From assembly GCA_034520885.1 (NCBI GenBank), contig JAXHNE010000002.1, positions 4,787 through 68,786 on the forward strand: 64,000 nt of DNA. The letters run 5' to 3'. Within the stretch, counting starts at the first letter, position 1; every line of letters starts with the position of its first letter. Positions 9,755 through 62,566 of the stretch are shown here, piece by piece. The translations under genes were made by a program, and so were the position numbers. The notes below the pieces were generated by a model. That model ran no database searches. It saw only the letters and a program-made list of their open reading frames with translations, and was not told the origin of the DNA. Origin of the DNA: Candidatus Saccharimonadota bacterium (GTDB lineage Bacteria; Patescibacteriota; Saccharimonadia; Saccharimonadales; JAXHNE01).

Positions 9755-9922
9755 ATGCTTAATATATTCGTTTTACGGATAAAAACGCAAGCACGAGCAC
9801 TTACATACGACCCCTGAAGCACCTCACAAAAATTTTCAAAATTGTAACGATCGTTCAAAATTTGAGATTTTTATTTCGTGCGTGGTTAGAACGATAAGAG
9901 CTGTGGTGGTGGTAGCGTTTTT

Positions 9923-14331: not shown

Positions 14332-14520
14332 TTATTGCTCGATCTTCTTTATCTTGTTCTCGGCCGCCTTGAGCTTGGCTTCCAGCTGCTTAATCAATTC
14401 GGCGCCGCGTTCGTACTTTTTAAAAGCTTCGTCGATATCGATATCTTCCGACTCCAGCTCCGCAAACACCTCGTCCAGTTCTTCGCGTAGTTGCTGATAA
14501 GTTTTATCTGTCATGACCAT
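14332..14520 (-). CDS. xseB: exodeoxyribonuclease VII small subunit
   Basis: 62-aa helical protein; ...LREELDEVFAELESEDIDIDEAFKKYERGAELIKQL is the typical XseB pattern. Confidence 0.85.
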   Translation of the reverse strand: MVMTDKTYQQLREELDEVFAELESEDIDIDEAFKKYERGAELIKQLEAKLKAAENKIKKIEQ

Positions 14521-14935
14521 TAGTTTATAGGTTTTAGTGGTTAGATGCTAGAGATTAGGGGTTAGAGGTTAGTAGGTGGAAGGCGGTAAGCGACTTCGTC
14601 GCAATAGACGATAGATGAGAATTAATAGGTGATAGATGAGGGGTGATGGGTCGTATAGTTGGTAGGTGGCAGTTCTATAGTTCTGAGTAGTGAGTGGTGA
14701 GCTTCAGATAATACTAGAATTAATATCTAGTATTAATTCTAGTATTATTGAAACTTACCAGGCACGAACTGGAAGATAGCAGTTGGCAAGCGGGAAGCTT
14801 TTAGACCCGGAACCGCCGCCACCTCGTTTATCACCTATTAATTCTCATCTATCGTCCTATTGCCTACCGAAGTCGCCTACCTCTTATCTATCACCTATCG
14901 ACTATTATCTATTAACTCTCACCTATGCGGCTTTG
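14521..14935. mobile_element. foldback (MITE/IVS-like) element with heptamer-word arms, a long inverted repeat and a 42-bp AT palindrome
   Basis: The left half is C-poor and the right half is its G-poor complement. 14590-14634 is the inverted repeat of 14829-14876. The near-perfect palindrome is at 14708-14749. There is no ORF, and the element separates xseB from xseA. Confidence 0.7.
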
Positions 14936-17211: not shown

Positions 17212-18513
17212 ATGAAGTCACTGGCAATTTTAGGACGGCAACCGGCAATTGGCCTTGCGGAGCTGGAGTCGCTGTATGGCGCCGAAGCCGTACGACCCGT
17301 CGGCGAAAACGCCGTTACCGTTAACATCGCCCCCGATCAAATTGAGTTCAGGCGGCTGGGGGGCACGGTAAAGCTCGCCAAATTATTGACAGTTTTAGAT
17401 TTTACGAACTGGGATAAAATTGAAGATTTTCTGGCCGAGGAACTCCCCAAGCACACCTGTTGCATTACGGAAGGCAAACTGACGCTGGGGCTGAGCGCCT
17501 ACGGGTTCAAAATGAGTCCCAAAAAATTAAACGCCACTGCCCTGTCGCTGAAAAAGACCATCAAAGCCACCGACCGGCCGGTAAGAATTGTACCCAATAA
17601 GTCACTGGAGCTTTCCAGTGCACAGGTACTGCATAACAAATTATTTACCTCGCACAATTGGGAGCTCATTTTGCTGCGTGACGGCAACGAAACCTACCTG
17701 GCACAAACTACCAACGTGCAAGATATCGACGCTTACGCCGCCCGCGACCAAGCCCGGCCGGCCCGGGACGCAAAGGTCGGCATGCTCCCACCGAAATTAG
17801 CCCAAACGATAATTAATTTGGCTGTAGGCCAAATTAAAAAGATTGAAGATCGAGGACAGGAGAACGAAGAAAAAAACCCTCAATCCTCAATCCCCCATCC
17901 TCTATCAGTTTTTGATCCGTTTTGCGGAACGGGCGTGATACTACAAGAAGCGCTACTAATGGGATATCAAGTGACTGGAACGGATCTCGATGCACGTATG
18001 GTCGAATACGCCCGGCGCAACATGGACTGGCTCCAGCAAAAATGGAAGGTGGAAGGTGGAAGATGGAAGGTGGCAGGTGGCAAATGGAAGGTGGAAAATG
18101 GCGATGCAACGGATTACTCCTGGCCTGCGCTCTCAGCTTCCGGCTCTCGGCTCTCGGCTACCATCGCTTGCGAAACGTACTTGGGACGACCGTTTTCTTC
18201 CGCGCCGGATCACGCTACGCTGCAAAAAGTCATGCGTGACGTGGACACCATCCACGAAAAGTTTTTAAAAAACGTGGCCTCGCAGACGGAGTCGGGTTTT
18301 CGAATGTGCCTCGCCGTGCCGGCATGGGCACGCCACAGACAACAGACAACAGACAACAGACAACAGACTTTTAGGCATTTACCGGTGCTTGAAAAATTGA
18401 ACGAACTGGGGTATACTCGATTAAGTTTTGCTCACGCAAGAAACGAGGAGTTGATCTATCACCGAGAAGGTCAAATCGTCGGCCGTGAGCTCGTCGTTCT
18501 AAAAAGAACGTAA
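17212..18513 (+). CDS. RNA (guanine-N2-type, Trm11/UPF0020-like) methyltransferase carrying three in-frame low-complexity inserts
   Basis: N-terminal THUMP-like region and SAM motif I VFDPFCGTGVILQEALLMG. The inserts are at 17841-17906, 18038-18165 and 18335-18368. Confidence 0.7.
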   Translation: MKSLAILGRQPAIGLAELESLYGAEAVRPVGENAVTVNIAPDQIEFRRLGGTVKLAKLLTVLDFTNWDKIEDFLAEELPKHTCCITEGKLTLGLSAYGFKMSPKKLNATALSLKKTIKATDRPVRIVPNKSLELSSAQVLHNKLFTSHNWELILLRDGNETYLAQTTNVQDIDAYAARDQARPARDAKVGMLPPKLAQTIINLAVGQIKKIEDRGQENEEKNPQSSIPHPLSVFDPFCGTGVILQEALLMGYQVTGTDLDARMVEYARRNMDWLQQKWKVEGGRWKVAGGKWKVENGDATDYSWPALSASGSRLSATIACETYLGRPFSSAPDHATLQKVMRDVDTIHEKFLKNVASQTESGFRMCLAVPAWARHRQQTTDNRQQTFRHLPVLEKLNELGYTRLSFAHARNEELIYHREGQIVGRELVVLKRT

Positions 18514-21061: not shown

Positions 21062-21100
21062 GTCAACTTGCGTTCAGAACAAAGCAGGCTCGACGGTATG

Positions 21101-21600
21101 AGTACTAAACCTGGCGTCCTGACTTTGTGCCAGATTGAAATTTTATCCGCGAAGCGCCAAGGAAGCGTACTGAACGTACGGTGACTGCGACTCGTAAGGA
21201 TAAAATACTCAAGCTGGCCAAGAAACATGAATCGCGCGCCTAGTGCTCACACTTGAGTACAGTTTGGTCGTTCTTTTCGAGGAGCGGACCGAGTACTAAA
21301 CCTGGCGTCCTGACTTTGTGCCAGATTGAAATTTTATCCGCGAAGCGCCAAGGAAGCGTACTGAACGTACGGTGACTGCGACTCGTAAGGATAAAATATT
21401 CAAGCTGGCCAAGAAACATGAATCGCGCGCTTAGTGCTCACACTTGAGTACAGTTTGGTCGTTCTTTTCGAGGAGCGGACCGAGTACTAAACCTGGCGTA
21501 CTGACTTTGTGCCAGATTGAAATTTTATCCGCGAAGCGCCAAGGAGGCGTATTAATATACGGTGACTGCGACTCGTAAGGATAAAATATTCAAGCTGGCC
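21101..21600 (+). repeat. tandem repeat, 191-bp unit x about 2.6 (candidate multi-unit ncRNA)
   Basis: Units start at 21101, 21292 and 21483 and are nearly identical by eye. Each has several hairpins, including GCGTAC-TGAAC-GTACGGTGACTGCGA. Confidence 0.85.
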
Positions 21601-21605
21601 AAAGA

Positions 21606-24807: not shown

Positions 24808-24898
24808 AAAGAGCTCCTATTACTTCCCATCATTATGCACGCAAAAAGCAACGATGCGCAAGCATCAGCGTTTTCTAGTCTCTTGTTTACTTATGGGC

Positions 24899-25102
24899 GA
24901 TTCCAGGCTCTGAAGCAACCTGGACGAGCGTTGTGAGAATCAGGCGCCCTTGGGTGCGAGGACTGTTTGAGTAAAAATGGTGCCTGTCGGCACTATTTCT
25001 GTGAGTTCCAAGATCGTGGCTTTTCTAAAATGTTCACTATAGCTTCTTCACTGAAAACTGACAACGAACAACCGACAACTGTTATATAACTAGTTATATA
25101 AC
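24899..25102. repeat. solo copy of the 'unit-2' structured module, followed by GACAAC words and a 22-bp AT palindrome
   Basis: 24901-25008 is about 88% identical by eye to 60826-60932. GTTATATAACTAGTTATATAAC at 25081-25102 is a perfect palindrome. Confidence 0.7.
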
Positions 25103-29368: not shown

Positions 29369-29397
29369 ATTATACACTCGTGACACATGCACCACAA
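29369..29397 (-). promoter_or_regulatory. sigma70-type promoter of ftsE giving a leaderless or near-leaderless mRNA
   Basis: Minus-strand TTGTGG (29397-29392), a 17-nt spacer, then TATAAT (29374-29369) preceded by TG. Seven nucleotides later comes the ATG. Confidence 0.6.
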
Positions 29398-29460
29398 CGG
29401 GCAAAAAGGCAAACAAAGTTCGCTTTATTGCCGTTGCTCTTGGCTCAATAAGTAATTTTC
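29378..29460. repeat. 83-bp direct repeat, copy 1 (overlaps the ftsE promoter)
   Basis: Identical by eye to 29673-29755. Confidence 0.85.
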
Positions 29461-29672
29461 CTTTGTGAGTACTCCCTCACCGTATCTCGATACGCCTCAG
29501 TCCGTTCCTCAAGGAGAAATTACTTCTTGAGCTCAAGTGCATGCCTCACGAAACCCGTATATCCATATCCAATTTTCTTCTGCGGTTCTCCTTCACCGTA
29601 CGGACAAGTACGGCTCAGTCTGCGTCCTCAAAGATAAATTGAATCTGGGATCACAAATGTGAGAGTGGTTTA

Positions 29673-29755
29673 TCGTGACACATGCACCACAACGGGCAAA
29701 AAGGCAAACAAAGTTCGCTTTATTGCCGTTGCTCTTGGCTCAATAAGTAATTTTC
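29673..29755. repeat. 83-bp direct repeat, copy 2
   Basis: Identical by eye to 29378-29460, with a period of 295 bp. Confidence 0.85.
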
Positions 29756-29956
29756 GTTTGCGGTGTTCACTCACCGTACCGAAAGTACGCCTCGCTGAAA
29801 CTCCTCACGAGAAATACCAAATGAGCCTCAAGTGTGTGGCTCTGATTGCAAATCGATTATTTAAGGAGAAATTGCTTCTTGAGCTCAAGTGCAAGTCTTA
29901 GGTTACACGAATTTTTATAGCAATTATAACGGTTTTGGAAGAGCCGGATTTTTAAT

Positions 29957-44406: not shown

Positions 44407-45348
44407 TCAGACGAAAAAGATGAGCGACAAGACGACCAGCAACGTCGCCTGCAAGACAACGATCACCTTTTCAGCGGCTATAAAGTCCTTACCCAGCGAG
44501 CCGGATTTAGTAATTTGCTGCCGATGCACTTGCCCGAGCGCCAGGTAAGCCAAAAATCCGGCGGCCAACAAGGCATAGACGGAGGCGCTCAAAGTAACGA
44601 ACCCGTACAGGTAAGTGTGTAAAATGCTGATACCGATGATAACCCATGGCAAAAGCAGTGCTTCGATGGCGATTTTTTGTTTCAGCCTCGTACTGCGACC
44701 GATCAAGTTATAACGATCGGTCAAATACCCCAAGACGGCGGTAAATGCCGGAATGCTCGCCAAAAGAAGCAGCGTCATAACGTCGCGCACGCCGACCGCC
44801 GCGGCGATCACCGCGATAACCAACGGGCCGAAAACCGCGTGTTCTACCCAGTTCAAACTGGTAAATTTATTCTTTACTTGCGCGCTATAACGAGCGAATA
44901 ACCTTGTCGATAAAGCGGCGTGCCATAAAGCTCCGGCAATCAACACGCCCGCTGCCACGTACAACAGGTTAACCGCGAACAATTCGGTGGCCGCCGGCAA
45001 AAGCGATCCGGTTTCGGTCAAAGTATTCTCCGCCAGGTAGCTGGAGTTAATTCCCACCACCGCGTCATTGCCGTAGCTAAATAAGAATCCGGCCAACACG
45101 GCCATTAATAATCCTAAGAACACGTGCAGTTTTTTAAGCTGCATGAACGCGTCTTTTACGGGCGCGGTTTTTTTGCCCTTGGCCGTAGCCGCTGATTTTT
45201 TAGCGGTCGTTTTGGCCGTAGTTTTCTTGGCCGCCGTTTTCTTGGCGGGTTTTTTAGTGGATTTACGAGCCGTGCTCGCCCTGGAAGTCTTGGTCTTCGT
45301 TTTGGTCGTTGTTTTCGCTTTACTCGGTTGTTTCTTACTTGTAGCCAT
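44407..45348 (-). CDS. heliorhodopsin-like 7-TM protein with Lys/Ala/Thr-rich N-terminal tail
   Basis: Seven predicted TM helices. RYSAQVKNKFTSLNWVEHAV and LPWVIIG resemble heliorhodopsin segments as I remember them. The start is ATG 45348; the ORF-track extension to 45591 is spurious. Confidence 0.55.
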   Translation of the reverse strand: MATSKKQPSKAKTTTKTKTKTSRASTARKSTKKPAKKTAAKKTTAKTTAKKSAATAKGKKTAPVKDAFMQLKKLHVFLGLLMAVLAGFLFSYGNDAVVGINSSYLAENTLTETGSLLPAATELFAVNLLYVAAGVLIAGALWHAALSTRLFARYSAQVKNKFTSLNWVEHAVFGPLVIAVIAAAVGVRDVMTLLLLASIPAFTAVLGYLTDRYNLIGRSTRLKQKIAIEALLLPWVIIGISILHTYLYGFVTLSASVYALLAAGFLAYLALGQVHRQQITKSGSLGKDFIAAEKVIVVLQATLLVVLSLIFFV

Positions 45349-45578
45349 AATGAATGAACTATAGCATATTCCAGCTGATATAATAATAGTATGGTGCAAA
45401 GAGCTGAATGGAGGGATGCCGTGAACTACGCACGTGAGCATAGTTTGGCAGTTCTTCGCGAGCATCGTAAAAGAGGCGTACTTAACGGTACGGTGACTGC
45501 GAAGCGCAGAGAAAACTGGCAAAATATGCCACGAACAGCAACAGCACCACATGCTTGGCATGTGGGCAGGATGCTGTG

Positions 45579-46112
45579 ATGCGTAGTTCACAGGTCGCTA
45601 CTTTGGCCGGTGGTTGTTTTTGGTGCTTGGACGCGATTTTCCGCCAAACCAAAGGGGTAAAATCCGTTCAAAGCGGTTTTAGCGGCGGCCATGTTGAAAA
45701 CCCTAGCTACATGCAAACGCATGATGAAGACACCGGCCACGCCGAAGCCGTACAAATCGAGTTTAACCCTGACGTCATTAGCTACGAAACGATCTTACGA
45801 ATATTTTGGACGAGCCATAACCCCACCACGCTCAACCGTGATGGCGCCAACGTCGGGCCGGAGTACCGAAGCGAGGTGTTCTATCACGACGAAACCCAGC
45901 GCAAAACCGCGGAGAACGTACTACGTGACTACGCCGAAAAACTGTGGGACGATCCCATCGTCACCAAAATTACCAAGTACAAAAACTTCTACCCCGCCGA
46001 AGAACATCACCAGGATTATTTTAATAAAAACCCACAGGCCGGCTACTGCCAAGTCATCATCAACCCCAAAATCACTAAGTTCAAGGAAAAATTCAAGGAC
46101 TATTTAATCTAG
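45579..46112 (+). CDS. msrA: peptide methionine (S)-S-oxide reductase
   Basis: Active-site GGCFWC motif and the size of the MsrA family. Confidence 0.9.
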   Translation: MRSSQVATLAGGCFWCLDAIFRQTKGVKSVQSGFSGGHVENPSYMQTHDEDTGHAEAVQIEFNPDVISYETILRIFWTSHNPTTLNRDGANVGPEYRSEVFYHDETQRKTAENVLRDYAEKLWDDPIVTKITKYKNFYPAEEHHQDYFNKNPQAGYCQVIINPKITKFKEKFKDYLI

Positions 46113-51542: not shown

Positions 51543-52268
51543 TTAAGTTCCGAAACGTCTCTTTCTCGTACCGTACCAGTCTAGCGCATCCTGGAAATCT
51601 TGTAACGTAAAATCCGGCCATAGTTTTTGCGCGAAATACAGTTCGCTATACGCCGCGCGTAAAAGCATGAACCCGCTGGTGCGTTGTTCCCCGGAGGTGC
51701 GAATCACTAAATCCACCGGTGGAATCATGTCGCCTTCATACAAAAGCGAGTGCAAAACGTCCTTGCTCATGTCCTCCGGAGCGATTCTCTTTTCCAAGGC
51801 TTTTTTGTAAACGTCAATCAACTCGTCTTCCCCGCCGTAGTTAAAACACAGCGCCAACGTGCCTTTGGTATTATCTTTGGTTTTTTCTTCCGTTCGGGCA
51901 ATGGCCCGGGCCACGTTTTTGGGGATGTCGGTTTTACGCCCCAAAATTACGATTTTGATTCCCGCTTTATGAAAAGTGTCCAGGTAGTTTTCCACCGCTT
52001 TGGTGACCAACTTCATTAAATACCCGACTTCTTCTTCGGTGCGTGACCAGTTTTCGCTGGAAAACACGAACGCCGAAAGGTACTTTACGCCGCGATCAAA
52101 CGCCCCGAGCGCAATCTCCTTAAAAACTTCCGCGCCTTCCCGGTGCCCTTCCATTGTCGGCAAGCCCTTGGCTTTCGCCCACCGCCGATTACCGTCTAGA
52201 ATTATTCCAACGTGAGTGGGCACGGATTGGGGATTGAGGATTGGGGATTGAGGAGATTCAGTTGGCAT
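51543..52268 (-). CDS. uppS: isoprenyl transferase (undecaprenyl diphosphate synthase)
   Basis: HVGIILDGNRRWAKAKG and RTSGEQRTSGFMLL. The start is either ATG 52268 or GTG 52223; the 15 codons between them are encoded by heptamer-word repeat. Confidence 0.9.
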   Translation of the reverse strand: MPTESPQSPILNPQSVPTHVGIILDGNRRWAKAKGLPTMEGHREGAEVFKEIALGAFDRGVKYLSAFVFSSENWSRTEEEVGYLMKLVTKAVENYLDTFHKAGIKIVILGRKTDIPKNVARAIARTEEKTKDNTKGTLALCFNYGGEDELIDVYKKALEKRIAPEDMSKDVLHSLLYEGDMIPPVDLVIRTSGEQRTSGFMLLRAAYSELYFAQKLWPDFTLQDFQDALDWYGTRKRRFGT

Positions 52269-52626
52269 TTTTACTCCGTAAAGAACCGTTGAGTGCATGA
52301 AGCATACGGGATATTATCGCACATTCTTTCAGTATTTCATCGGCCGGTAGTCGGTATACTTTTTGTGCAGTGATCACCTGTGTTTCGAGTTCGGCCAGCG
52401 AACCAAGAGCAATATCATTAAATCGGATCGTGTCTTTGTTCCCGAACCTTTTTTGACCTTCAGCGATATTTGACGCTACCGAGACTGCCGCCCTTTTCAT
52501 CTGATCGGCAAGAGCAAATTGTTCCGTCTTTGGTAGCTGTGTAATGAGTTCATAGTTTGTCACCGCGAGCTCGACCGCTCGCTGCCACACTTCCAGCTTT
52601 TGATATTCATGAGCACCCATACTCAA
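52258..52626 (-). CDS. four-helix-bundle protein (23S rRNA intervening-sequence protein / Avd-like family)
   Basis: YQKLEVWQRAVELAV...QMKRAAVSVASNIAEGQKRFGNKD...LGSLAELETQ is the family signature. The gene is flanked by inverted heptamer-word repeats. Confidence 0.85.
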   Translation of the reverse strand: MSMGAHEYQKLEVWQRAVELAVTNYELITQLPKTEQFALADQMKRAAVSVASNIAEGQKRFGNKDTIRFNDIALGSLAELETQVITAQKVYRLPADEILKECAIISRMLHALNGSLRSKNAN

Positions 52627-52673
52627 CCTTCCTCAATCTTCAGTCTTCCATCCCCTATCCGAAATAATGACGT

Positions 52674-53237
52674 CTAAACGGTCATTATTTCTGACTCTTT
52701 AACCTTGGCCGTCTCTTCGATTTCTTTTTTGACCTCGTTCATGGCTTGATCAACTTGGTCGCTTAAGCGCTTGGCGTCATCTTCGCTGACGTCGCCGTCT
52801 TTTTTGGCTTTGTTGATAGTGTCCATGGCGTCATGACGCGCGTTACGCAAGCTGATCATGGCATCTTCGGTTTTACCGCCCACGATTTTTACGTATTCGC
52901 GGCGGCGTTCCTCGGTCAGCGGCGGCACCGGAATACGCACTACTTTGCCGTCATCCATGGGGTTCATACCCAGGCCTTGGTCTTCGCGGATGGCTTTGCT
53001 GATAGCTTCCAGGTTGTTGGGGTCGTACGGCGTGATTTGCAAAAGCTGTGGTTCGGGCGCACTTACGCCACCGACCTGAATCAGCGGCATGGGCTGCCCG
53101 TAAGCTTCCACCGTAATGTTGTCCAGCATACTGGGATGCGCTCGCCCCGTACGCACCTTTTTGAGCTCTTCCATGAAGTGCTCCTGCGCCTGCTTAAATC
53201 CTTTTTTCGCGTCGTTAACCACTTGTTCCGGCGTCAT
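52674..53237 (-). CDS. frr: ribosome recycling factor
   Basis: 187 aa; the ...MLDNITVEAYGQPMPLIQVGGVSAPEPQLLQITPYD... pattern is typical of Frr. Confidence 0.95.
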   Translation of the reverse strand: MTPEQVVNDAKKGFKQAQEHFMEELKKVRTGRAHPSMLDNITVEAYGQPMPLIQVGGVSAPEPQLLQITPYDPNNLEAISKAIREDQGLGMNPMDDGKVVRIPVPPLTEERRREYVKIVGGKTEDAMISLRNARHDAMDTINKAKKDGDVSEDDAKRLSDQVDQAMNEVKKEIEETAKVKESEIMTV

Positions 53238-53280
53238 TTATCCTCCAATAATTTACTGGTATCAGTATACAGGATGTAGA

Positions 53281-54100
53281 GTTTGGACGGTAGAGGCGAG
53301 GAGTTGGTAGGTAGTAGATAGGAGATCGGGGATTGAGGATTGAGGATTGAGGAAAGAGTTCTGGGTTCATAGTTCATGGATAGGGTTTAGGGGCTAGGAG
53401 TTGGAAGATGGAAGTTGGAATTTGGTAGATAGAAGATGGTAGTTGGGAGTTAGTATTTCGTAGACAGTTGTCAGTTGTCCGTCTTCAGTAGTTGCGTTGT
53501 TCCAGGCTCTGGCTGAACTGATTGGACGATACGGGCAAAACCAGCAAACAAGCCTCAAGCTTGTTTTTTATGTAGTTACAACTGCCCTCGGCAGTTGTTC
53601 ACTTGGGCTCCAGGCTTCGAAAGCCTCCCCGGTAGTAGAACCAGTTCACTACGGGGCACGCCTGAGGAGCGAGTGTCAAAAGCACAATTTCTGCCGAGGA
53701 CTTGTTTGAGGGGTTGCCGGCTGAAGTATTTTGGCATACCCCGAGTTGTCCGAGCATTGTGCTTTTTGATAATGAGATCATAAAGAGGTTTTCGCGCCTG
53801 TGGCCTTTTTGGGGCACTTTTTGGCTACGCAAAAAGTGTCTGGGGGTGAAGCTGACCAGTCAGCTTCAATAATGACAGAACAAGATAGTGGGTCGGGAAA
53901 GCAAAAGCGAAGCTTTGCGCCGAAAAAACATACTTTGGGGCACTTTTTGGCCATGCAAAAAGTGCCTGACGGGAAGCTGACCAGACAGCTTCATATAATT
54001 CGTTACTGCCTACGATATTGATCGTATAGTTACAGTTGTCTAGCCCCTGTTGCAGAGCAATAATACTAGAATTAATACTAGTATTAATTCTAGTATTATT
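53281..54100. mobile_element. one-armed member of the foldback family: heptamer-word arm, roughly 590-bp structured non-coding core, perfect 42-bp AT palindrome
   Basis: Word arm at 53281-53470, hairpin modules at 53497-53995, palindrome at 54059-54100. The only ORFs here are short and inconsistent. Confidence 0.7.
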
Positions 54101-54120
54101 GAAGTTCCCCGCGAATGTTC

Positions 54121-54357
54121 TTACGCCCGGTCTCTCCCCCTGTCGCTAATGGCGGCACCGACCAAAAGCCCGAACCCGCCGGCTACCTCACCGTTGATAC
54201 TCTGTCCCGCGGCTTCGAAAAGTTCGGTTGAAACGCCGAAGACTCGCTCCGCAACAACCGCTACGCCCAACAACCCCAATCCGACCGCACCAGCCCATCT
54301 ACCAATGCGCTCCATCCTATTTACCGACCGGGGCGATTCAAAGTCTTCGAATTCCAT
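54121..54357 (-). CDS. small Gly/Ala-rich membrane protein
   Basis: 78-aa ORF with hydrophobic Gly-zipper-like segments, located 3 nt downstream of a similar small ORF. Confidence 0.45.
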   Translation of the reverse strand: MEFEDFESPRSVNRMERIGRWAGAVGLGLLGVAVVAERVFGVSTELFEAAGQSINGEVAGGFGLLVGAAISDRGRDRA

Positions 54358-56925: not shown

Positions 56926-57276
56926 ATGAAAAAGGATATTCATCCCCAGAACTACCGCCCCGTGGTGTTTCAGGACTTAAACAACGACTGGGCAATTTTG
57001 ACCCGCTCCACCGCCGCGAGCGAGGAAACCATTAAGTGGGAGGACGGCAACGAATACCCGCTGGTAAAAGTACACATCTCCAGCAGTTCGCACCCCTTCT
57101 TCACCGGCCAGGAAAAACTGGTCGACATTGAAGGCCGAGTTGATAAGTTCAAGGCACGCCAAGATGCCGCCAAGTCCAAAGCCGACGCCATGAAAAAAGC
57201 CGCCGGCAAACAGCGCAAAAAACAACCCAAAGCCGACGAAACCCAGAAGATGGGTACGCTCAAGCGCAATAAGTAG
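56926..57276 (+). CDS. rpmE: 50S ribosomal protein L31 (type B, no Cys motif) with Lys-rich C-terminal extension
   Basis: [17 protein letters not shown]...[20 protein letters not shown]. Confidence 0.9.
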
Positions 57277-57312
57277 TTGACAGTAATCAGTTGACAGTAG
57301 ACAGTTGTTGAT

Positions 57313-57651
57313 ATGAGTTCGTACCGTGACCTAAAAGTCTGGAAAGATTCATTTGAGCTAACAAAATTAGTTTATAAAGCTACTGTCAAGTTACCTTCAA
57401 ATGAAAAGTTCGGTCTCGCTTCACAAATACAGCGTTGCGCAGTCTCGATTCCGTCAAATATTGCAGAAGGCCAACAACGAAAAGGTGCAAACGAATTTAA
57501 ACAGTTTCTTGGGATAGCCCGCGGTTCTGCGGCCGAACTTTCAACGCAACTTCTGCTTGCCCAGGACATCTATTCTATCGAACTGGAAATACTTGTAGAA
57601 AAAACTGAAGAAATTCAAAAAATGCTCTATAGCTTGCAGCAAAAACTGTAA
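57313..57651 (+). CDS. four-helix-bundle protein (23S rRNA intervening-sequence protein / Avd-like family)
   Basis: YRDLKVWKDSFELTKLVY...QIQRCAVSIPSNIAEGQQRKGANEF...GSAAELSTQ. The gene is flanked by GTTGACAGT / CTGTAACCT word repeats. Confidence 0.85.
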   Translation: MSSYRDLKVWKDSFELTKLVYKATVKLPSNEKFGLASQIQRCAVSIPSNIAEGQQRKGANEFKQFLGIARGSAAELSTQLLLAQDIYSIELEILVEKTEEIQKMLYSLQQKL

Positions 57652-57702
57652 ACTGTAACCTGTAACCTGTAAACTAACCATTGTTACCTGTAAACTAGCC
57701 AT

Positions 57703-58753
57703 ATGGATAAAAAGGAACAAGACCTACGCGACGAGCTCGCCGACATTATGAAACAGCTGGAAGATCCGGCTATTTTCAGCACGCCCGAGTATCCCAAAAT
57801 GCCGCCAAAAAAAGATAGAAGACATACTCGCGCTTTACGATGAACTGGCAAAGAGCAAAGAGCAAAGAGCAAAGAGCAAAGAGCTTCTGGACTCTGACGA
57901 TGAAGAATTGGCCGAACTCGCCAAAAGCGAGATAGAAGATCTGGATTTGAAAATTGAAACCCTCGAACTTAAACTAACGGAGGCTTTGACTCCAAAGGAT
58001 CCCAACGACGAAAAAGATGCCATTATAGAAATTCGCGCCGCGGCCGGTGGCGATGAAGCCGCCCTGTTCGCCGGCGAGCTATACCGCATGTACGCCCGTT
58101 GGTGCGAAACGCACGGCTACAAAATAGAACTTATCAACGAAAGTCCCGCGGAAGTCGGCGGGTTCAAAGAAATCAGCTTTTTGGTGCGCGGCGAAGACAC
58201 CTATAAATTCTTTAAGTTCGAAGGCGGCGTACACCGCGTTCAGCGCGTGCCGGAAACCGAAAGCCAAGGCCGCGTGCACACCAGCACCGTGACCGTGGCG
58301 GTCATGCCCGAAGCCGAAGAAACCGACATTGAAATCGACCAAAACGACCTTCGCGTAGATGTCTACCGAGCCGGCGGCCACGGCGGGCAATCCGTAAATA
58401 CTACGGACTCCGCCGTACGCATCACCCACGTGCCAACGGGGGTCGTTGTTACCAACCAGGACGAAAAATCGCAAATCAAAAACAAGCTCAAAGCCATGAA
58501 CGTATTACGTTCCCGCCTGCTCCAGCACAAAATTGACGAAGAAAACGCCAAGCTATCAGCTGAACGCAAAAAGCTGGTCGGCAGCGGCGACCGCAGCGAG
58601 AAAATCCGCACCTACAACTTCCCGCAGGACCGCATTACCGATCACCGTATTGGCTACTCCCGCAGCAACATCCCCGGAGCTTTGGACGGCCAAATAGACG
58701 ACCTCATAGAAGAACTCCACAAAGCCGAACACGAACTAATGAGTAACGAGTAA
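57703..58753 (+). CDS. prfA: peptide chain release factor 1, reading frame broken by one extra base at an A7 run (57807-57813)
   Basis: Frame 1 (57703-57813) encodes MDKKEQDLRDELADIMKQLEDPAIFSTPEYPKMPPKK. Frame 2 continues IEDILALYDEL...PKDPND...GGHGGQSVNTTDSAVRITH... to 58753. Frame 1 stops at 57841. Confidence 0.85.
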
Positions 58754-59637: not shown

Positions 59638-60513
59638 ATGATTACCATTTCTAGGTGGATGGCTAAAAAAACTAAAGCGCTAGAGAGCGCCGGGATTTCC
59701 ACCGCTCGACTGGATTGTTTGGTGCTTTTAGAGGACGCGACCGGTAAAGATCGTTCATGGTTGCTGGCGCATCCGGAGCACGAGTTAGAAAGTTCAAAAG
59801 TTAAAAAGCTGAAAGAGCAAGTTCAGCGGCGGGCTAAGCATGAGCCGCTGGCCTATATTCGTGGGCGGAGTGCTTTTTATGGCCGGGAGTTTTTGGTGAA
59901 CGAACATACTTTGCAGCCCCGGCCGGAAACGGAAACGATGATCGACCACTTAAAATCACTGTACAAGGTTGAACCTTGTACAGAAGCTAAAAGCTCTGAG
60001 CGAAAAGCTCTGAGCATAGTAGATGTAGGGACTGGATCTGGTTGTATTGGGATTACCGCCAAGCTGGAGCTGCCGGATGCGGAAGTGTATGCCACGGACA
60101 TTTCCGAAGAATGCTTAAAAATAGCCCGAAAAAACGCCCGAAAACTAAAAGCCAATGTGGAGTTCCACAAAGCTAATCTCCTCCTCTCCCAAAAAAATAA
60201 TTCTCACTTTTTGAACGATCGTTCAAAAAGTGAGAATATTGTTTTGCTGGCTAATTTACCTTATGTTCCGGAAGGTTTCACTATAAACCAAGCCGCGATG
60301 TTCGAGCCGGACGTTGCCATATTCGGCGGTAAGGACGGATTGGATTACTACCGCGAGTTATTCGCCCAGATTGAAACGCTAAAAACTAAACCACATTTCA
60401 TTTTTACCGAAAGCCTACCAACGCAGCACAAAGACCTGACTGCAATCGCAGAAAAACACGGGTTTCGGCTTCATGAATGCCAGGATTTTATTCAAGTATT
60501 TATTAGGCGTTAG
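59638..60513 (+). CDS. prmC: release-factor glutamine methyltransferase PrmC/HemK
   Basis: EPLAYIRGRSAFYGREF, VDVGTGSGCIGI, and NLPYV in place of NPPY. ATG at 59638. The stop TAG (60511-60513) lies within the terminal motif of the downstream foldback element. Confidence 0.85.
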   Translation: MITISRWMAKKTKALESAGISTARLDCLVLLEDATGKDRSWLLAHPEHELESSKVKKLKEQVQRRAKHEPLAYIRGRSAFYGREFLVNEHTLQPRPETETMIDHLKSLYKVEPCTEAKSSERKALSIVDVGTGSGCIGITAKLELPDAEVYATDISEECLKIARKNARKLKANVEFHKANLLLSQKNNSHFLNDRSKSENIVLLANLPYVPEGFTINQAAMFEPDVAIFGGKDGLDYYRELFAQIETLKTKPHFIFTESLPTQHKDLTAIAEKHGFRLHECQDFIQVFIRR

Positions 60514-61393
60514 ATGCTAGACGTTAGAGGGTAGAGGGTAGAAGTTGGAAGTTGGAATTTGGAAGGTGGAAGATGGTAGGCGACTTCTTCGCAAAAGGTG
60601 AGAGTTAATAGATAAGGGTTAATAGATGATAGATGAAGGGTGGTAGATGGAAGATGGAAGATAGAAGATGGAAGATGGGGAAAATAATAAGTAAAACATA
60701 AATAGTAAGTTTCCGGGCTCTGCCTGAAACGATTGGACGGCGCCTCGGGTAAAAACCGACAAACAAGCTTCAAGCTTGTTTTTTATGTAGTTACAACTGC
60801 TCCGGAGCAGTTGTTCACTTGGCCTCCAGGCTCTGGAACAACCTGGACGGACGTTGTGGGAATCAGGCGCCCTTGGGTACGAGGACTGTCTGAGCAGAAA
60901 TGGTGCCTGGCGGCACCATTTCTGTGAGTTTCACAGTAAGCCTGATTGTGACAACGGCCGTAGCTGTTGTTTCAGCCGCCTGTCGGCTTTTGTTGCAATC
61001 TTTTGCCGACTCAAAAGATTGCTGACGGGGAGCTGGTCAGTCAGCTTCGCTATTGGCGGAACAAGATAGTGGGTCGGGAAAGCAAAAGCGAAGCTTTGCG
61101 CCGAAAAAACATACTTTGGGGCACTTTTTGGCCATGCAAAAAGTGCCTGGTGGTGAAGCTGACCAGACAGCTTCTATTAGTAGTTACCTACTACTTTGAT
61201 TGTATAGTTATGGCCGTATCGCCCTTGTTAAAACGTAATAATACTAGTATTAACTCTAGTATTAATACTAGTATTATTTTTACTAACTATGAGGTGCTAT
61301 CTTCCATATCCTAAATTCCATCTTCCAAGCACTATCTTCTAGCCCCTGTCTTCAATCTTCAATCCCCAATCTTCATTCCGTAACAACTATGAA
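60509..61393. mobile_element. complete foldback-family element: two inverted heptamer-word arms, structured core, 42-bp AT palindrome
   Basis: Left arm 60509-60700 (C-poor), core 60712-61176, palindrome 61237-61278, right arm 61285-61393 (G-poor, the reverse complement of arm-type sequence also seen at 53300-53440). It fills the whole prmC-htrA convergent spacer. Confidence 0.75.
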
Positions 61394-62566
61394 CTAACTA
61401 CTGGGTGCAGCTTCCAAAGTGGCGGTCAGATCGATTTCCTCGCCGCCGCGAATTACTTTCATAGTGATTTCGTCGCCTACTTGATTGCGTCCGACCAACG
61501 TTACCAATGAGTTTTCTTCGTTCACCGGCTCCCCGTTGACTTCCACGATAATGTCTTCTTCTTGTAGTCCCGCCTGCTCGGCCGGGCTGTCCGCGGCAAT
61601 GCCCGGTTGGCCGGTGGAGCCGGTAGTGATATACGCCCCGGACTCTTGTTCTATATCAAGCTCCCGGGCGATTTCCGCGTTCAGTTGAATATAGCGAACG
61701 CCGAGATATGCCCGCTGAAACTCGCCCGTTTCCAGCACACTGTTTATTAATCCTTTTATGTCGTCGATCGGGATGGCAAAGCCGATGTTTTCCGCCCCGC
61801 CACTGGCCACCGCGGTGTTCACGCCGATGACCTTGCCTTCGCCGTTAACAAGCGGGCCGCCGGAATTTCCCTGATTAATCGCCGCGTCCGTTTGAAACAG
61901 GTTTTGCAGCGTGTCCGACCCCGATTGGTCGCGCGCGGTAATACTGCGGCCGAAGCCGGAAATAATCCCGCTGGTCACGGTGTTTTGGAATTGCCCGAGC
62001 GCGTTGCCGATAGCTATCACGCGCTCCCCGACCTTCGTATCACTGGAATTTCCCAGAGTAACCGGGGTGAGATCATTTCCTTCGTCATCATTGATCTTCA
62101 AAAAGGCAATGTCCAAAGGATCACTGCTGGCCGTCCGCCCTAAGACTTCCACGTTCTCCAGTTCCGTACCGTCGGAGAGCGTGACGCTCACTTCACTCGC
62201 CCCTTCGGGCACCACGTGCCGGTTGGTCAGCACGATACCGTCCCGGCTCAAGATAAAGCCGGTGCCCGCACTCTCCTGGGTGAACGGCTCTGACGGTCCG
62301 AAAAAGGAACGCGCGCTGGCTTCACTTTCCACGTTCACCGACACCACCGAAGCGCCGACGTCTTCGGCGATTCCGATGATGAGTTCGCTTTGCGCATCAA
62401 TAGTTCGCTGCTGAGCTATATTGATATCCTCCTGGTGTTGTTGGCTCTGCGCACCGAACCAACCCCCCAGAAAACCGGCCGATATGCTGGCCAACGCGCA
62501 CAGCACCACGAGCGCCAGCTTGCTTCGTTTCGGTGAATTATTGGATTTGGCCGTCTGCTTGGCCAT
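61394..62566 (-). CDS. htrA: HtrA/DegP-family serine protease with PDZ domain
   Basis: GTGFILSRDGIVLTNRHVV and GNSGGPLVN, followed by a PDZ domain; N-terminal TM. Confidence 0.92.
   Translation of the reverse strand: MAKQTAKSNNSPKRSKLALVVLCALASISAGFLGGWFGAQSQQHQEDINIAQQRTIDAQSELIIGIAEDVGASVVSVNVESEASARSFFGPSEPFTQESAGTGFILSRDGIVLTNRHVVPEGASEVSVTLSDGTELENVEVLGRTASSDPLDIAFLKINDDEGNDLTPVTLGNSSDTKVGERVIAIGNALGQFQNTVTSGIISGFGRSITARDQSGSDTLQNLFQTDAAINQGNSGGPLVNGEGKVIGVNTAVASGGAENIGFAIPIDDIKGLINSVLETGEFQRAYLGVRYIQLNAEIARELDIEQESGAYITTGSTGQPGIAADSPAEQAGLQEEDIIVEVNGEPVNEENSLVTLVGRNQVGDEITMKVIRGGEEIDLTATLEAAPSS

Follow-up and report, generated by a model that had tools for sequence, protein, structure and literature searches.

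The spacer between tsf and frr in the source genome contained an insertion of ~840 nt, which we regard, with a probability of about one in two, as a one-armed IVS/MITE-like element carrying a new structured RNA. Its core looks like an undescribed folded RNA preserved by selection. We infer the transcription, strand and processing of the element from sequence. Further members of the same repeat family were present in the window, the whole 64-kb stretch of DNA analysed here. Such an amount of conserved non-coding sequence within the rpsB-tsf-frr-uppS-rseP string was unexpected because Saccharibacteria genomes are small and tightly packed.

Insertion site and integrity of the block

The gene order tsf, small ORF(s) and frr was common to five relatives (L004, L006, L009, L013 and L016). 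Their spacers from the small membrane ORF to frr measured 38-80 nt, or a second small ORF was located there, compared with ~845 nt in the source genome (53276-54120). No ORF of the block matched Pfam. The initial annotation had described a non-coding insertion in an otherwise tight operon and proposed a comparison of tsf-frr spacers among relatives. The insertion-free sites in these five relatives bear out this description, and 53276-54120 is a genuine insertion. Most relatives were without the element, and copy A, as the block is called here, has no right arm. The element is therefore clearly dispensable. Two further relatives, L007 and L011, carried different inserts at the same frr site.

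The left boundary of the insertion was marked by a conserved frr upstream box (TGTATACT...GGAGG...ATG) at 53235-53273 on the minus strand, outside the element. The arrangement TGTATACT..ATCTGTAAA..GGAG was invariant in L004, L006, L009, L012, L016 and L017, either 5' of frr or of its preceding small ORF. frr of the source genome retained its own invariant box (TGTATACT...GGAG), directly adjoining the insertion, and is probably expressed from it.

The initial annotation had named an assembly chimera and an overlooked conserved gene as possible errors. No conserved gene was found, and the block was not chimeric at its edges. The frr/left-arm junction was reproduced by the independent Logan contig L001, and the junction of small ORF and palindrome, without a right arm, by the independent Logan contig L018 (both run SRR26473340). 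Both short-read contigs ended inside the repeat. ORFs of at least 50 aa inside the block had no Pfam match, and the translated internal ORF of 73 aa, which served as a query for mis-called genes, had no match among 5.8 billion proteins. That the block is a product of misassembly or a protein-coding gene that went unrecognised is highly improbable and essentially refuted already. Short-read assemblies did break within the element, and an interior stretch of 91 nt was identical to a second copy, but both junctions were present in independent contigs, the flanking synteny agreed with relatives, a homologous piece occupied the same site in L012 (a related metagenomic Saccharibacteria contig), and neither Pfam matches nor protein homologues were detected. 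Misassembly was also rejected as an explanation for the lack of a right arm. The required crossovers conflict with the conserved flanking synteny, and the independent contigs show the same junctions.

Structure of copy A

The left arm (arm A, 53276-53480) consisted of G-rich heptamer words in arrays with periods of 7, 14 and 21 and showed a GC skew of +0.73 to +0.82. The previously noted (GATTGAG)x3 was present at 53331-53351, in a TRF array at 53330-53353 with period 7, 3.4 copies and 100% match. GGAAGATGGAAGTTGGAATTTGG was located at 53403-53425 in the same arm.

The core had been called hairpin-rich, and it was far more structured than dinucleotide shuffles (z = -8.2 on the plus and -8.6 on the minus strand). 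The cores of copy A and of the second full copy, copy B, together gave z-scores of -8 to -11 by this measure. The modules are described here on the plus strand. Positions 53500-53571 comprised module alpha1 (TTCCAGGCTCTGG..TGGACG) and, 3' of it, the terminator-like hairpin AAACAAGC-loop-GCTTGTTT with a T-run; this stretch was kept in copy B at 60711-60786. The hairpin ACAACTGCC-CTC-GGCAGTTGT at 53578-53598 had an identical stem in copy B, where differing loop-proximal bases lengthened the pairing (ACAACTGCTCC/GGAGCAGTTGT). The central domain (53605-53815), with a T-run at its end, was homologous to positions 2276-2460 of L012 (nhmmer, E = 4e-19). Its closing helix was GGGCTCCAGGC/GCCTGTGGCC, and helix H1 was formed by 53675-53688 with 53756-53770. 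A conserved tandem-GA internal loop, TGTYTGA-stem-GAGTT, was located at 53703-53747. In a regex search, this motif with its stem was found only in copies A, B and C and in L012. All four had 5'-UGA beside a helix opposite 5'-GAG. In a canonical kink-turn, a stem and a 3-nt bulge are followed by tandem sheared G-A pairs and another stem; the loop of the four copies measured 5-6 nt compared with these 3 nt.

Beta unit 1 (53811-53867) comprised the hairpins GGGGCACTTTTTG-GCTACG-CAAAAAGTGTCTGGGG and GAAGCTGAC-CA-GTCAGCTTC and was a direct repeat of beta unit 2. Its first hairpin showed four compensatory changes in copy B (GCAATCTTTTG/CAAAAGATTGC) and was kept in L012. Block 5 and the first hairpin of beta unit 2 (53878-53968) made up the 91 nt that were 100% identical to copy B (61059-61149). 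The second hairpin of beta unit 2 (53973-53992) and the hairpin CCTACGATATTGATCGTATAGT (54009-54030), spanning 53973-54030, were partly kept in copy B.

An AT-rich palindrome was located at 54058-54101. It was perfect, as first noted, but measured 44 bp and not 42 bp, with arms of 22 + 22 nt (54058-54079 and 54080-54101) that were 100% complementary without a spacer. It contained ~3.2 copies of the self-complementary 12-mer TAATACTAGTAT, and a pattern derived from it had 0 matches in 100 shuffles. Homologues were present at 61237-61278 and 14706-14750. By sequence match, the palindrome reads as TTAATA-16-TATTAT, promoter-like both ways.

Repeat family in the window

Within the 64-kb window, the core was complete in two copies and fragmentary in a third, and a mini copy was also present. 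Copies A and B shared a homologous core of ~560 nt (core A vs core B, nhmmer E = 1.7e-78). Copy B, a complete element at 60503-61392 on the plus strand between prmC and an HtrA-like protease gene, comprised a left arm (60503-60700), a core (60710-61236), a palindrome (61237-61278) and a C-rich right arm (61280-61392). In the predicted fold, its arms close the element. Copy C (24885-25011, plus strand) was a fragment of the central domain of the B type, with 89% identity over 109 nt (nhmmer E = 3.6e-23 vs copy B) and a different 12-mer palindrome on its 3' side (25077-25102). The mini copy (14520-14932, plus strand), between xseA, identified by Pfam, and a small downstream ORF, had two complementary heptamer arms and a palindrome without a core. 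It folded as a single long hairpin (z = -12.9), and the cofold gain of its arms was -88 vs -41 +/- 5 for shuffles. The left arms of copy B and the mini copy were related (nhmmer E = 8e-11). The family is mosaic, as copy B combined a mini-type outer left arm with an inner left arm and a right arm of the A type. The initial annotation mentioned neither the second full copy nor the fragment nor the homologous piece at the same site in L012.

The best partner of arm A was found in copy B, whose right arm gave an nhmmer E of 2e-5 (vs 61283-61406 reversed) and a cofold gain of -82 vs -42.5 +/- 5.7 for shuffles. No partner was found in its own right flank, where the cofold gain was -44.6 vs -39.4 +/- 5.8 for shuffled partners. 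With two complementary arms in the full and mini copies and arm A unpartnered in its flank, the earlier proposal of a one-armed copy was supported. Its second suggestion, that two Gly-rich small ORFs had replaced the right arm, failed. Insertion-free relatives carried one or two small ORFs at the same position, and these are therefore conserved syntenic genes. An 8-kb composite element marked by the pairing of arm A with the right arm of copy B was rejected; the enclosed genes were syntenic in relatives without the elements.

Two further heptamer-armed elements carried a gene for the four-helix-bundle protein 23S_rRNA_IVP (PF05635). The first was located at 52205-52672 on the minus strand between frr and uppS (Pfam E = 3e-31). 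Its arms paired with a cofold gain of -42 vs -19 +/- 4 for shuffles, and the frr-uppS position measured 40-93 nt in relatives. The second, at 57270-57705 on the plus strand between rpmE and prfA, had counterparts at the orthologous sites of L007 and L009/L010. A closing terminal stem was present in copy B, the mini copy and both IVP elements and absent in copy A. Descriptions of heptamer-armed IVP elements outside rRNA were not found in the literature.

Mobility of the family was inferred from copy number only, because none of the ~50 ORFs of the window encoded a transposase, integrase or reverse transcriptase and a comparison of boundaries with empty sites showed no target-site duplication, the exact boundaries being blurred by the low-complexity arm ends.

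The element might instead act at the DNA level. Its hairpins and palindromes would then either be recognised in single-stranded form by a transposase or recombinase acting in trans (IS200/IS605-derived PATE or REP/RAYT-like) or form arrays of protein-binding sites. All four core/palindrome copies had one chromosomal orientation irrespective of local gene direction, the perfect 44-bp palindrome was built from a 12-bp self-complementary unit, and the beta hairpins were almost perfect palindromes. A beta-type hairpin with a tandem G-rich 5' arm was also detected in an unrelated AT-rich metagenome contig. Several conserved pairs, however, were G-U (G-T) wobbles, and the unpaired internal-loop segments TGTYTGA and GAGTT were conserved, as expected of an RNA tertiary or protein-binding motif. 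Moreover, the window contained no Y1 transposase, TnpB, RAYT or recombinase, and neither a conserved short target sequence nor a target-site duplication was seen. Action at the DNA level is quite unlikely.

Conservation in a related genome

In nhmmer searches of cores and arms against 18 loci, L012 alone was matched. At the corresponding site and with matching orientation, it carried the central ~190 nt and one beta hairpin. The arm and the palindrome were missing there, as was the second beta unit. The Frr of L012 was 79% identical. Identity between copy A and L012 was 70% overall and 82% per aligned column, compared with 40% at third codon positions of frr. On the plus strand, their comparison gave 48 pairs with 8 compensatory changes, 7 one-sided changes via G-U and 0 broken pairs. 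This pattern was matched by 1 of 500 shuffles, and slid controls paired 33-48% of cells. The consensus of copies A and B on the plus strand had 124 pairs, of which 12 were compensatory. Since only four copies from two organisms were available, these covariation statistics come from alignments of two sequences each, from which the tested structure had itself been derived.

These comparisons suggest that the functional part of the core is RNA and that the ~190-nt central domain and the adjacent 11-bp hairpin are under purifying selection. A decaying, functionless copy of a selfish repeat, with historical hairpins and nothing used by the cell, is an improbable alternative. It would fit the single arm, the absence of the element from most relatives, the mosaic family, the truncated fragment at 24885-25011 and an insertion hot spot at the frr site. 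Yet the central domain and beta hairpin were 70-82% identical to L012 against the 40% of frr third codon positions, the 8 compensatory and 7 wobble-preserving changes came with no broken pair, and exactly these two parts were retained in L012. Orthology need not explain the site shared with L012. A hot spot could account for it instead and, if real, would weaken the argument for selection.

Strand and terminator-like sites

The RNA may be read, with moderate support, from the plus strand, antisense to tsf-frr, and end at the sites of hairpin and U-run. Terminator-like hairpins with U-runs, earlier assigned to the plus strand, were present there at two sites, 53546-53571 and 53803-53815, each of which has a counterpart in copy B; both are consensus matches only. 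The hairpin at 53546-53566 was followed by TTTATGTAGT on the plus strand, where it had the better T-tail; its counterpart was 60761-60781. The second plus-strand site (53803-53815; counterpart 60974-60988) was weaker. Free read-through on the minus strand, which had seemed possible along with these sites, was not evident, as the 53546-53566 hairpin also scored as terminator-like on that strand. The consensus of copy A and L012 reached -40.4 kcal/mol on the plus strand vs -27.0 kcal/mol on the minus strand. The consensus energy of copies A and B together was -123.8 on the plus and -111.6 on the minus strand, and the MFE of both cores was ~20 kcal/mol lower on the plus strand. The z-scores were alike on both strands, and G-U asymmetry is a weak discriminator.

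Action on the sense (minus) strand appears unlikely. In that case, one transcript would cover tsf, the small ORFs, the element and frr, and the hairpins would serve as a REP/BIME-like intercistronic processing or stabilising element or as a regulatory leader of the downstream gene. The minus strand was co-oriented with the flanking genes in three of four copies (A, C and L012), with which a sense-strand element would fit too, and it ran parallel to both flanking genes in these three and in the mini copy. The beta hairpin of L012 began 8 nt past the stop codon of the upstream ORF. The minus strand was strongly structured as well (z = -8.6 and -10.5), and the palindrome was promoter-like towards it too. 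Against this, the minus-strand consensus was weaker, with 39 vs 48 pairs for L012 and 106 vs 124 for copies A and B, and all seven one-sided changes would become A-C mismatches on that strand. In addition, the minus strand of copy B enters the antisense of prmC instead of leading towards a gene, and the downstream genes differed from copy to copy.

Database searches

Rfam 15 gave 0 matches for the whole window at the gathering threshold, hence no rRNA was found, and at E <= 10 copies A and B matched miRNA and sRNA noise only. No tRNA or tmRNA was present in the window. A blastn search of the core against phage and plasmid collections gave no match, and exact-pattern scans of viral contigs gave 0 matches. 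Scanning genome contigs with TTATGTAGTTACN{15,30}GTTCACTTGG gave one chance match (L003, coding) and one ambiguous match (L002, Maribellus), which was located 3' of a terminator hairpin and had a hairpin between both boxes. The evidence was too slight to infer homology. A metagenome scan with the beta hairpin gave two matches in unrelated organisms (L014 and L015), which may be due to chance or convergence.

Proposed model and implications

Heptamer-armed hairpin elements appear to form a multi-copy family in intercistronic spacers of housekeeping operons. Complete members would combine a long G-rich 5' arm with a shorter complementary C-rich 3' arm, giving a duplex of ~100 bp, comparable to the terminal stem of an intervening sequence (IVS) of 23S rRNA, around one of three kinds of cargo: the gene for the four-helix-bundle protein 23S_rRNA_IVP, the AT-rich 12-mer palindrome alone, or the ~560-nt modular non-coding core with palindrome. 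By analogy, RNase III would cleave the arm duplex of two-armed copies, which would free the cargo and leave the operon transcript in unligated segments. Copy A would have lost its 3' arm, and RNase III-type processing would consequently no longer be possible for it. A broader proposal, which is tentative and on the whole doubtful, is that the heptamer-armed elements constitute an undescribed IVS-like class in mRNA operons, that the ~190-560-nt core is a new, maintained structured RNA and a mobile ncRNA gene, and that the RNase III cut frees this RNA and uncouples neighbouring essential genes.

To our knowledge, almost no non-coding RNAs have been characterised in the phylum Saccharibacteria. 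If the core is a functional RNA, it would represent a new class of large structured RNA for these bacteria and a test system for IVS-type stems outside rRNA. If RNase III does cut the arm duplexes, the elements would provide a means of dividing or insulating operons after transcription. The association of heptamer arms with the 23S_rRNA_IVP gene bears on the long-standing puzzle of the role of that protein family. Even if merely selfish DNA, the block would account for the breaks of short-read assemblies at these loci.

Comparison with known systems

Like ROOL, GOLLD, HEARO, OLE and raiA, the core is a multi-hairpin non-coding sequence of several hundred nt in mobile or repeated DNA, and its helices show compensatory changes. 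In contrast to these, no Rfam 15 model fits it, and with four copies it is not yet an established RNA class.

In cyanobacterial STRR sequences, words of 7 nt are repeated in tandem in non-coding DNA, and a single genome contains many variants of them. The arms of the elements likewise consist of tandem 7-nt words with many variants in one genome. However, they occur in another phylum, complementary G-rich and C-rich heptamer pairs flank a cargo, and heptamer arrays are also found in frame inside genes.

With REP/BIME, the elements share hairpin-forming repeats between co-transcribed genes and a potential effect on mRNA processing or stability. They differ in their length of ~840 nt vs 35-150 nt, their modular build, the conserved internal-loop motif and the lack of a RAYT gene in the window.

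MITEs are similarly non-coding, multi-copy, intergenic and a few hundred bp long, with a core-less mini version beside longer ones. Inverted-repeat ends were present in copy B and the mini copy and absent in copy A. Unlike in MITEs, target-site duplications were not seen, the window contained no related transposase, and the arms were of low complexity, unequal in length and variable between copies. Some members occupied orthologous sites across species, suggesting vertical persistence over frequent jumping.

IVSs of Coxiella and Leptospira contain an S23p ORF, and their complementary termini form a stem that is cleaved by RNase III (PMC4990558). In contrast to IVSs of 23S rRNA, the elements described here were located between protein-coding genes and not in 23S rRNA helices 9, 25 or 45, and their arms were 100-200 nt of degenerate heptamer words compared with an IVS stem of ~28 bp. 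Copy A differed further by its single arm and its non-coding cargo, with no PF05635 ORF in 53276-54120. The likeness to these IVSs lies in the complementary termini of complete members, which form a long stem around a cargo, in the PF05635 gene of the two elements at 52205-52672 and 57270-57705, and in the tolerance of the elements inside transcription units.

Insertion in the frr operon

The block under study, copy A (about 53276-54120), lay between frr (52674..53237, - strand) and a 78-aa ORF (54121..54357, - strand). The Frr protein was 100% identical to that of a MAG named Candidatus Saccharibacteria bacterium, and the comparison set consisted of frr loci from relatives whose Frr was 74-82% identical. 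In loci L004, L006, L009/L010 and L013, the gene order was rpsB, tsf, a small two-helix membrane ORF (82-89 aa), frr, uppS and rseP, with merely 38-80 nt ahead of frr. L016 had two small ORFs before frr and no spacer. Against these tsf-frr spacers, the block stood out as the insertion that the initial annotation had seen in it. The two small Gly-rich ORFs, suggested there as one alternative to have replaced a right arm, were instead counterparts of conserved syntenic small ORFs in relatives.

A box, TGTATACT..ATCTGTAAA..GGAG, was invariant in L004, L006, L009, L012, L016 and L017, just 5' of frr or of an frr-overlapping small ORF; in the window it occupied 53235-53273. Its fuller form was TGTATACT(G/T)(G/A)TATCTGTAAA..GGAG, and the overlapping small ORF was acidic. 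The box might act as a translational operator of frr or as a promoter of the extended -10-like type. Because of its position and the short spacers of relatives, the insertion was delimited to about 53276-54120, adjoining the box.

An assembly chimera at the block edges was contradicted by independent evidence from run SRR26473340, in which two Logan contigs reproduced the junctions. L001 stopped 94 nt upstream of frr, within the left arm. L018 ran from tsf through both small ORFs to the palindrome, where it stopped; its 20-nt junction was identical to that of the window and a right arm was absent. The edges are no assembly artefact.

The spacer between tsf or the small ORF and frr was an insertion hot spot in the clade (L007, L011, L012, L016). 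In L007 (4459-4818) the insert was an unrelated ORF, Cys-rich, 119 aa long and encoded on the opposite strand; L011 (594-1265) had a hairpin-rich 370-nt spacer plus a 100-aa membrane ORF before frr. In L012 (2580-2741) and L016, an additional acidic ORF of 53-67 aa preceded frr.

Sequence features of the block

All sequence features listed in the initial annotation were found. The left arm, arm A (53276-53480), was a G-rich run of heptamer words some 200 nt long at the frr end, including (GATTGAG)x3 at 53331-53351 and GGAAGATGGAAGTTGGAATTTGG at 53403-53425. TRF detected arrays of period 7/14/21, and GC skew reached +0.8. The core was rich in hairpins, with folding z-scores of -8.2 (+ strand) and -8.6 (- strand) relative to dinucleotide shuffles. 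The palindrome was perfect as described, and its extent was corrected from 42 bp (54059-54100) to 22+22 nt at 54058-54101; in the TRF output it was a self-complementary 12-mer, TAATACTAGTAT, repeated about 3.2 times.

Coding or known-RNA signals were absent from the block. No ORF of at least 50 aa had a Pfam match, in line with the earlier non-coding call, and a translated internal ORF had no relative among 5.8 billion proteins. Rfam searches gave nothing in the whole window at the gathering threshold and noise alone on copies A and B at E <= 10; the core matched no Rfam family.

Several other features of the window were recorded. A 191-bp unit, repeated 2.6 times with 97-100% identity at 21100-21602, lay within the 650 nt that separate an FHA-domain gene from a response-regulator gene; Rfam gave no match for it at the gathering threshold. 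Upstream of ftsE, a long non-coding spacer contained an 88-nt repeat with 99% identity (29378-29465 and 29673-29760) and a second repeat with 79% (29511-29567 and 29863-29919), a pattern that suggests that a segment of about 300-350 nt was duplicated in tandem. The ORF at 44407-45591 matched the heliorhodopsin family (PF18761, E = 8e-20).

A repeat family with paired arms

Copy A belonged to a multi-copy family whose complete members had paired arms. Copy B (60503-61392) was complete: between a G-rich arm on the left and a C-rich arm on the right lay a core homologous to that of copy A and, at 61237-61278, the same palindrome as in copy A. The two cores aligned with nhmmer E = 1.7e-78, a mean column identity of 77% and an identical stretch of 91 nt. 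Fragment C (24885-25011) was 89% identical to the central domain of copy B and was followed by a different 12-mer palindrome. A mini copy (14520-14932), with two arms and the palindrome of copies A and B and no core, folded as a single long hairpin (z = -12.9); it lay between xseA and a small downstream ORF, which appears from its translation to be xseB. Heptamer arms also flanked two PF05635 (23S_rRNA_IVP) genes, at 52205-52672 in the frr/uppS spacer (IVP element 1) and at 57270-57705 in the rpmE/prfA spacer. The latter element recurred, with related arms of the ACAGGTT type, in L007 and L009/L010 at the orthologous position, and was missing from L006. No transposase, integrase or reverse transcriptase was found in a Pfam scan of about 50 window ORFs.

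In cofolding, arm pairs bound far better than with shuffled partners, and whole-element folds were closed by the arms. The gain was -88 for the mini arms (shuffled -41 +/- 5) and -42 for the arms of IVP element 1 (-19 +/- 4). Arm A found no partner in its own right flank (-44.6 versus -39.4 +/- 5.8), as expected of the one-armed copy proposed initially. Its best partner was the right arm of copy B (nhmmer E = 2e-5; gain -82 versus -42.5 +/- 5.7), and the outer left arm of copy B was of the mini type (nhmmer E = 8e-11). Families of arms can therefore be told apart, and the elements are mosaic. Copy A is a genuine derivative with one arm, and confidence in its being a one-armed member of the repeat family is high.

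Heptamer words also occurred in genes. A 433-aa methyltransferase-like ORF (17212-18513; weak UPF0020 and Methyltransf matches) carried four in-frame arrays (17878-17906, 18039-18101, 18129-18159, 18335-18368), so such words are tolerated in coding sequence as 7-aa-periodic inserts. The array at 17875-17906 was 88% complementary to arm A (53317-48). In the window, prfA (RF1; region 57703-57910) was broken across two frames at the A7 run gccgccaaaaaaagatag (about 57806-57816), either by a homopolymer sequencing error or by a real frameshift. Its N-terminal part was normal when continued in the downstream frame, which also crossed the in-frame array (GCAAAGA)x5.3 at 57848-57884, encoding AKSKEQRAKSKE.

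Core structure and signs of selection

On the + strand, the core began with module alpha1 and a terminator-like hairpin with T-run (53500-53571), followed by a conserved hairpin (53578-53598) and the central domain (53605-53815), closed by GGGCTCCAGGC/GCCTGTGGCC with a T-run after it. Two double-hairpin beta units (53811-53867 and 53937-53992) were direct repeats separated by a block identical to copy B; a small hairpin and the palindrome ended the core. In an internal loop, TGTYTGA-stem-GAGTT, two 5'-GA faced each other beside a variable helix. Together with its stem it was present in 4/4 copies (A, B, fragment C and L012) and absent elsewhere in the 64 kb and the 18 loci. It resembled a kink-turn or tandem-GA motif, yet was not canonical. 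Two related long palindromes centred on GAACGATCGTTC (AAAATTGTAACGATCGTTCAAAATTT and CACTTTTTGAACGATCGTTCAAAAAGTG) lay at 9829-9876 and 60193-60240, the latter inside the prmC coding region and sharing its CACTTTTTG/CAAAAAGTG arms with the beta hairpin.

In L012 (Logan SRR28403175; Frr 79% identical), the first beta hairpin and some 190 nt of the central domain were present (nhmmer E = 4e-19); their site and their orientation to the operon matched those of copy A. L012 retained a short arm remnant and lacked the palindrome and second beta unit. Between window and L012, identity was 72% for frr DNA and only 40% for its third codon positions, as against 70% for the whole non-coding domain and 82% when counted per aligned column. 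The hairpins were conserved and compensated. All 48 pairs of the RNAalifold structure could form in both sequences; in eight of them both partners had changed, among these an apical stem exchanged as a whole, and in seven one partner had changed via G-U. These values, matched by 1/500 shuffles, come from two sequences and a structure derived from the same two; with partners slid, pairing fell to 33-48%. Copies A and B shared 124 consensus pairs, 12 of them compensatory, four of which fell in the first beta hairpin (CACTTTTTG/CAAAAAGTG versus CAATCTTTTG/CAAAAGATTG). All statistics represent two to four sequences, from two organisms. Confidence is moderate that the core of copy A is a structured RNA under selection.

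A sense role of the element would agree with the - strand of copy A, fragment C and L012 running with the neighbouring genes. The consensus energy was lower on the + strand (-40.4 versus -27.0 for window/L012; -123.8 versus -111.6 for A versus B), as was the MFE of both cores, by about 20 kcal/mol, and all one-sided changes were wobble-compatible on the + strand only. The plus-strand terminator-like hairpins of the initial annotation were recovered as two hairpin and T-run sites in copies A and B, with the qualification that the first also scored on the - strand. With moderate confidence, these predictions point to a core RNA from the + strand, antisense to the tsf-frr operon.

Proposed mechanism and comparison with known systems

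The core would be a functional RNA, read from the + strand and ending at the terminator-like sites. In complete members, the arm duplex might be processed by RNase III. The analogy is with 23S rRNA intervening sequences (IVSs): their ends are complementary and pair into a stem that RNase III cleaves, and an S23p ORF can be present within them (PMC4990558). Copy A, with its single arm, would escape such processing, and frr itself probably depends on the conserved box upstream of it. Confidence in this processing scheme is low to moderate.

Exact-pattern scans of one genome and one metagenome collection returned ambiguous matches only. In L014 (4380-4500; fermentation metagenome contig UOOK01000532), from an unrelated AT-rich organism, a hairpin tip equalled the beta sequence GCACTTTTTGCCCATGCAAAAAGTGC; tandem G-rich GGTTGGG-type repeats preceded it on the 5' side, each pairable with a short C-rich 3' side. 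The Saccharibacteria elements likewise combine a long G-rich 5' arm, made of repeats, with a short 3' one, a likeness that may be chance or a wider phenomenon. In L002 (7765-7830; Maribellus sp. CM-23, Bacteroidota), the core pattern TTATGTAGTTAC-hairpin-GTTCACTTGG, for which about one chance match was expected, directly followed a terminator hairpin, as in copies A and B.

We found no description in the literature of heptamer-armed IVP elements in operon spacers, nor of the core RNA; the element is real, non-trivial and currently undescribed. In a CPR study, 23S_rRNA_IVP ORFs lay within rRNA insertions, and rRNA genes of Saccharibacteria mostly had short insertions only. The family is like a MITE in copy number and, in its two-armed members, in inverted arms, but no target-site duplication was seen at its boundaries, which the low-complexity arm ends blur, and no parent transposon was visible in the window. 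The heptamer words resemble cyanobacterial STRRs. The heptamer-armed elements share the architecture of IVSs, but sit outside rRNA, the defining location of IVSs.
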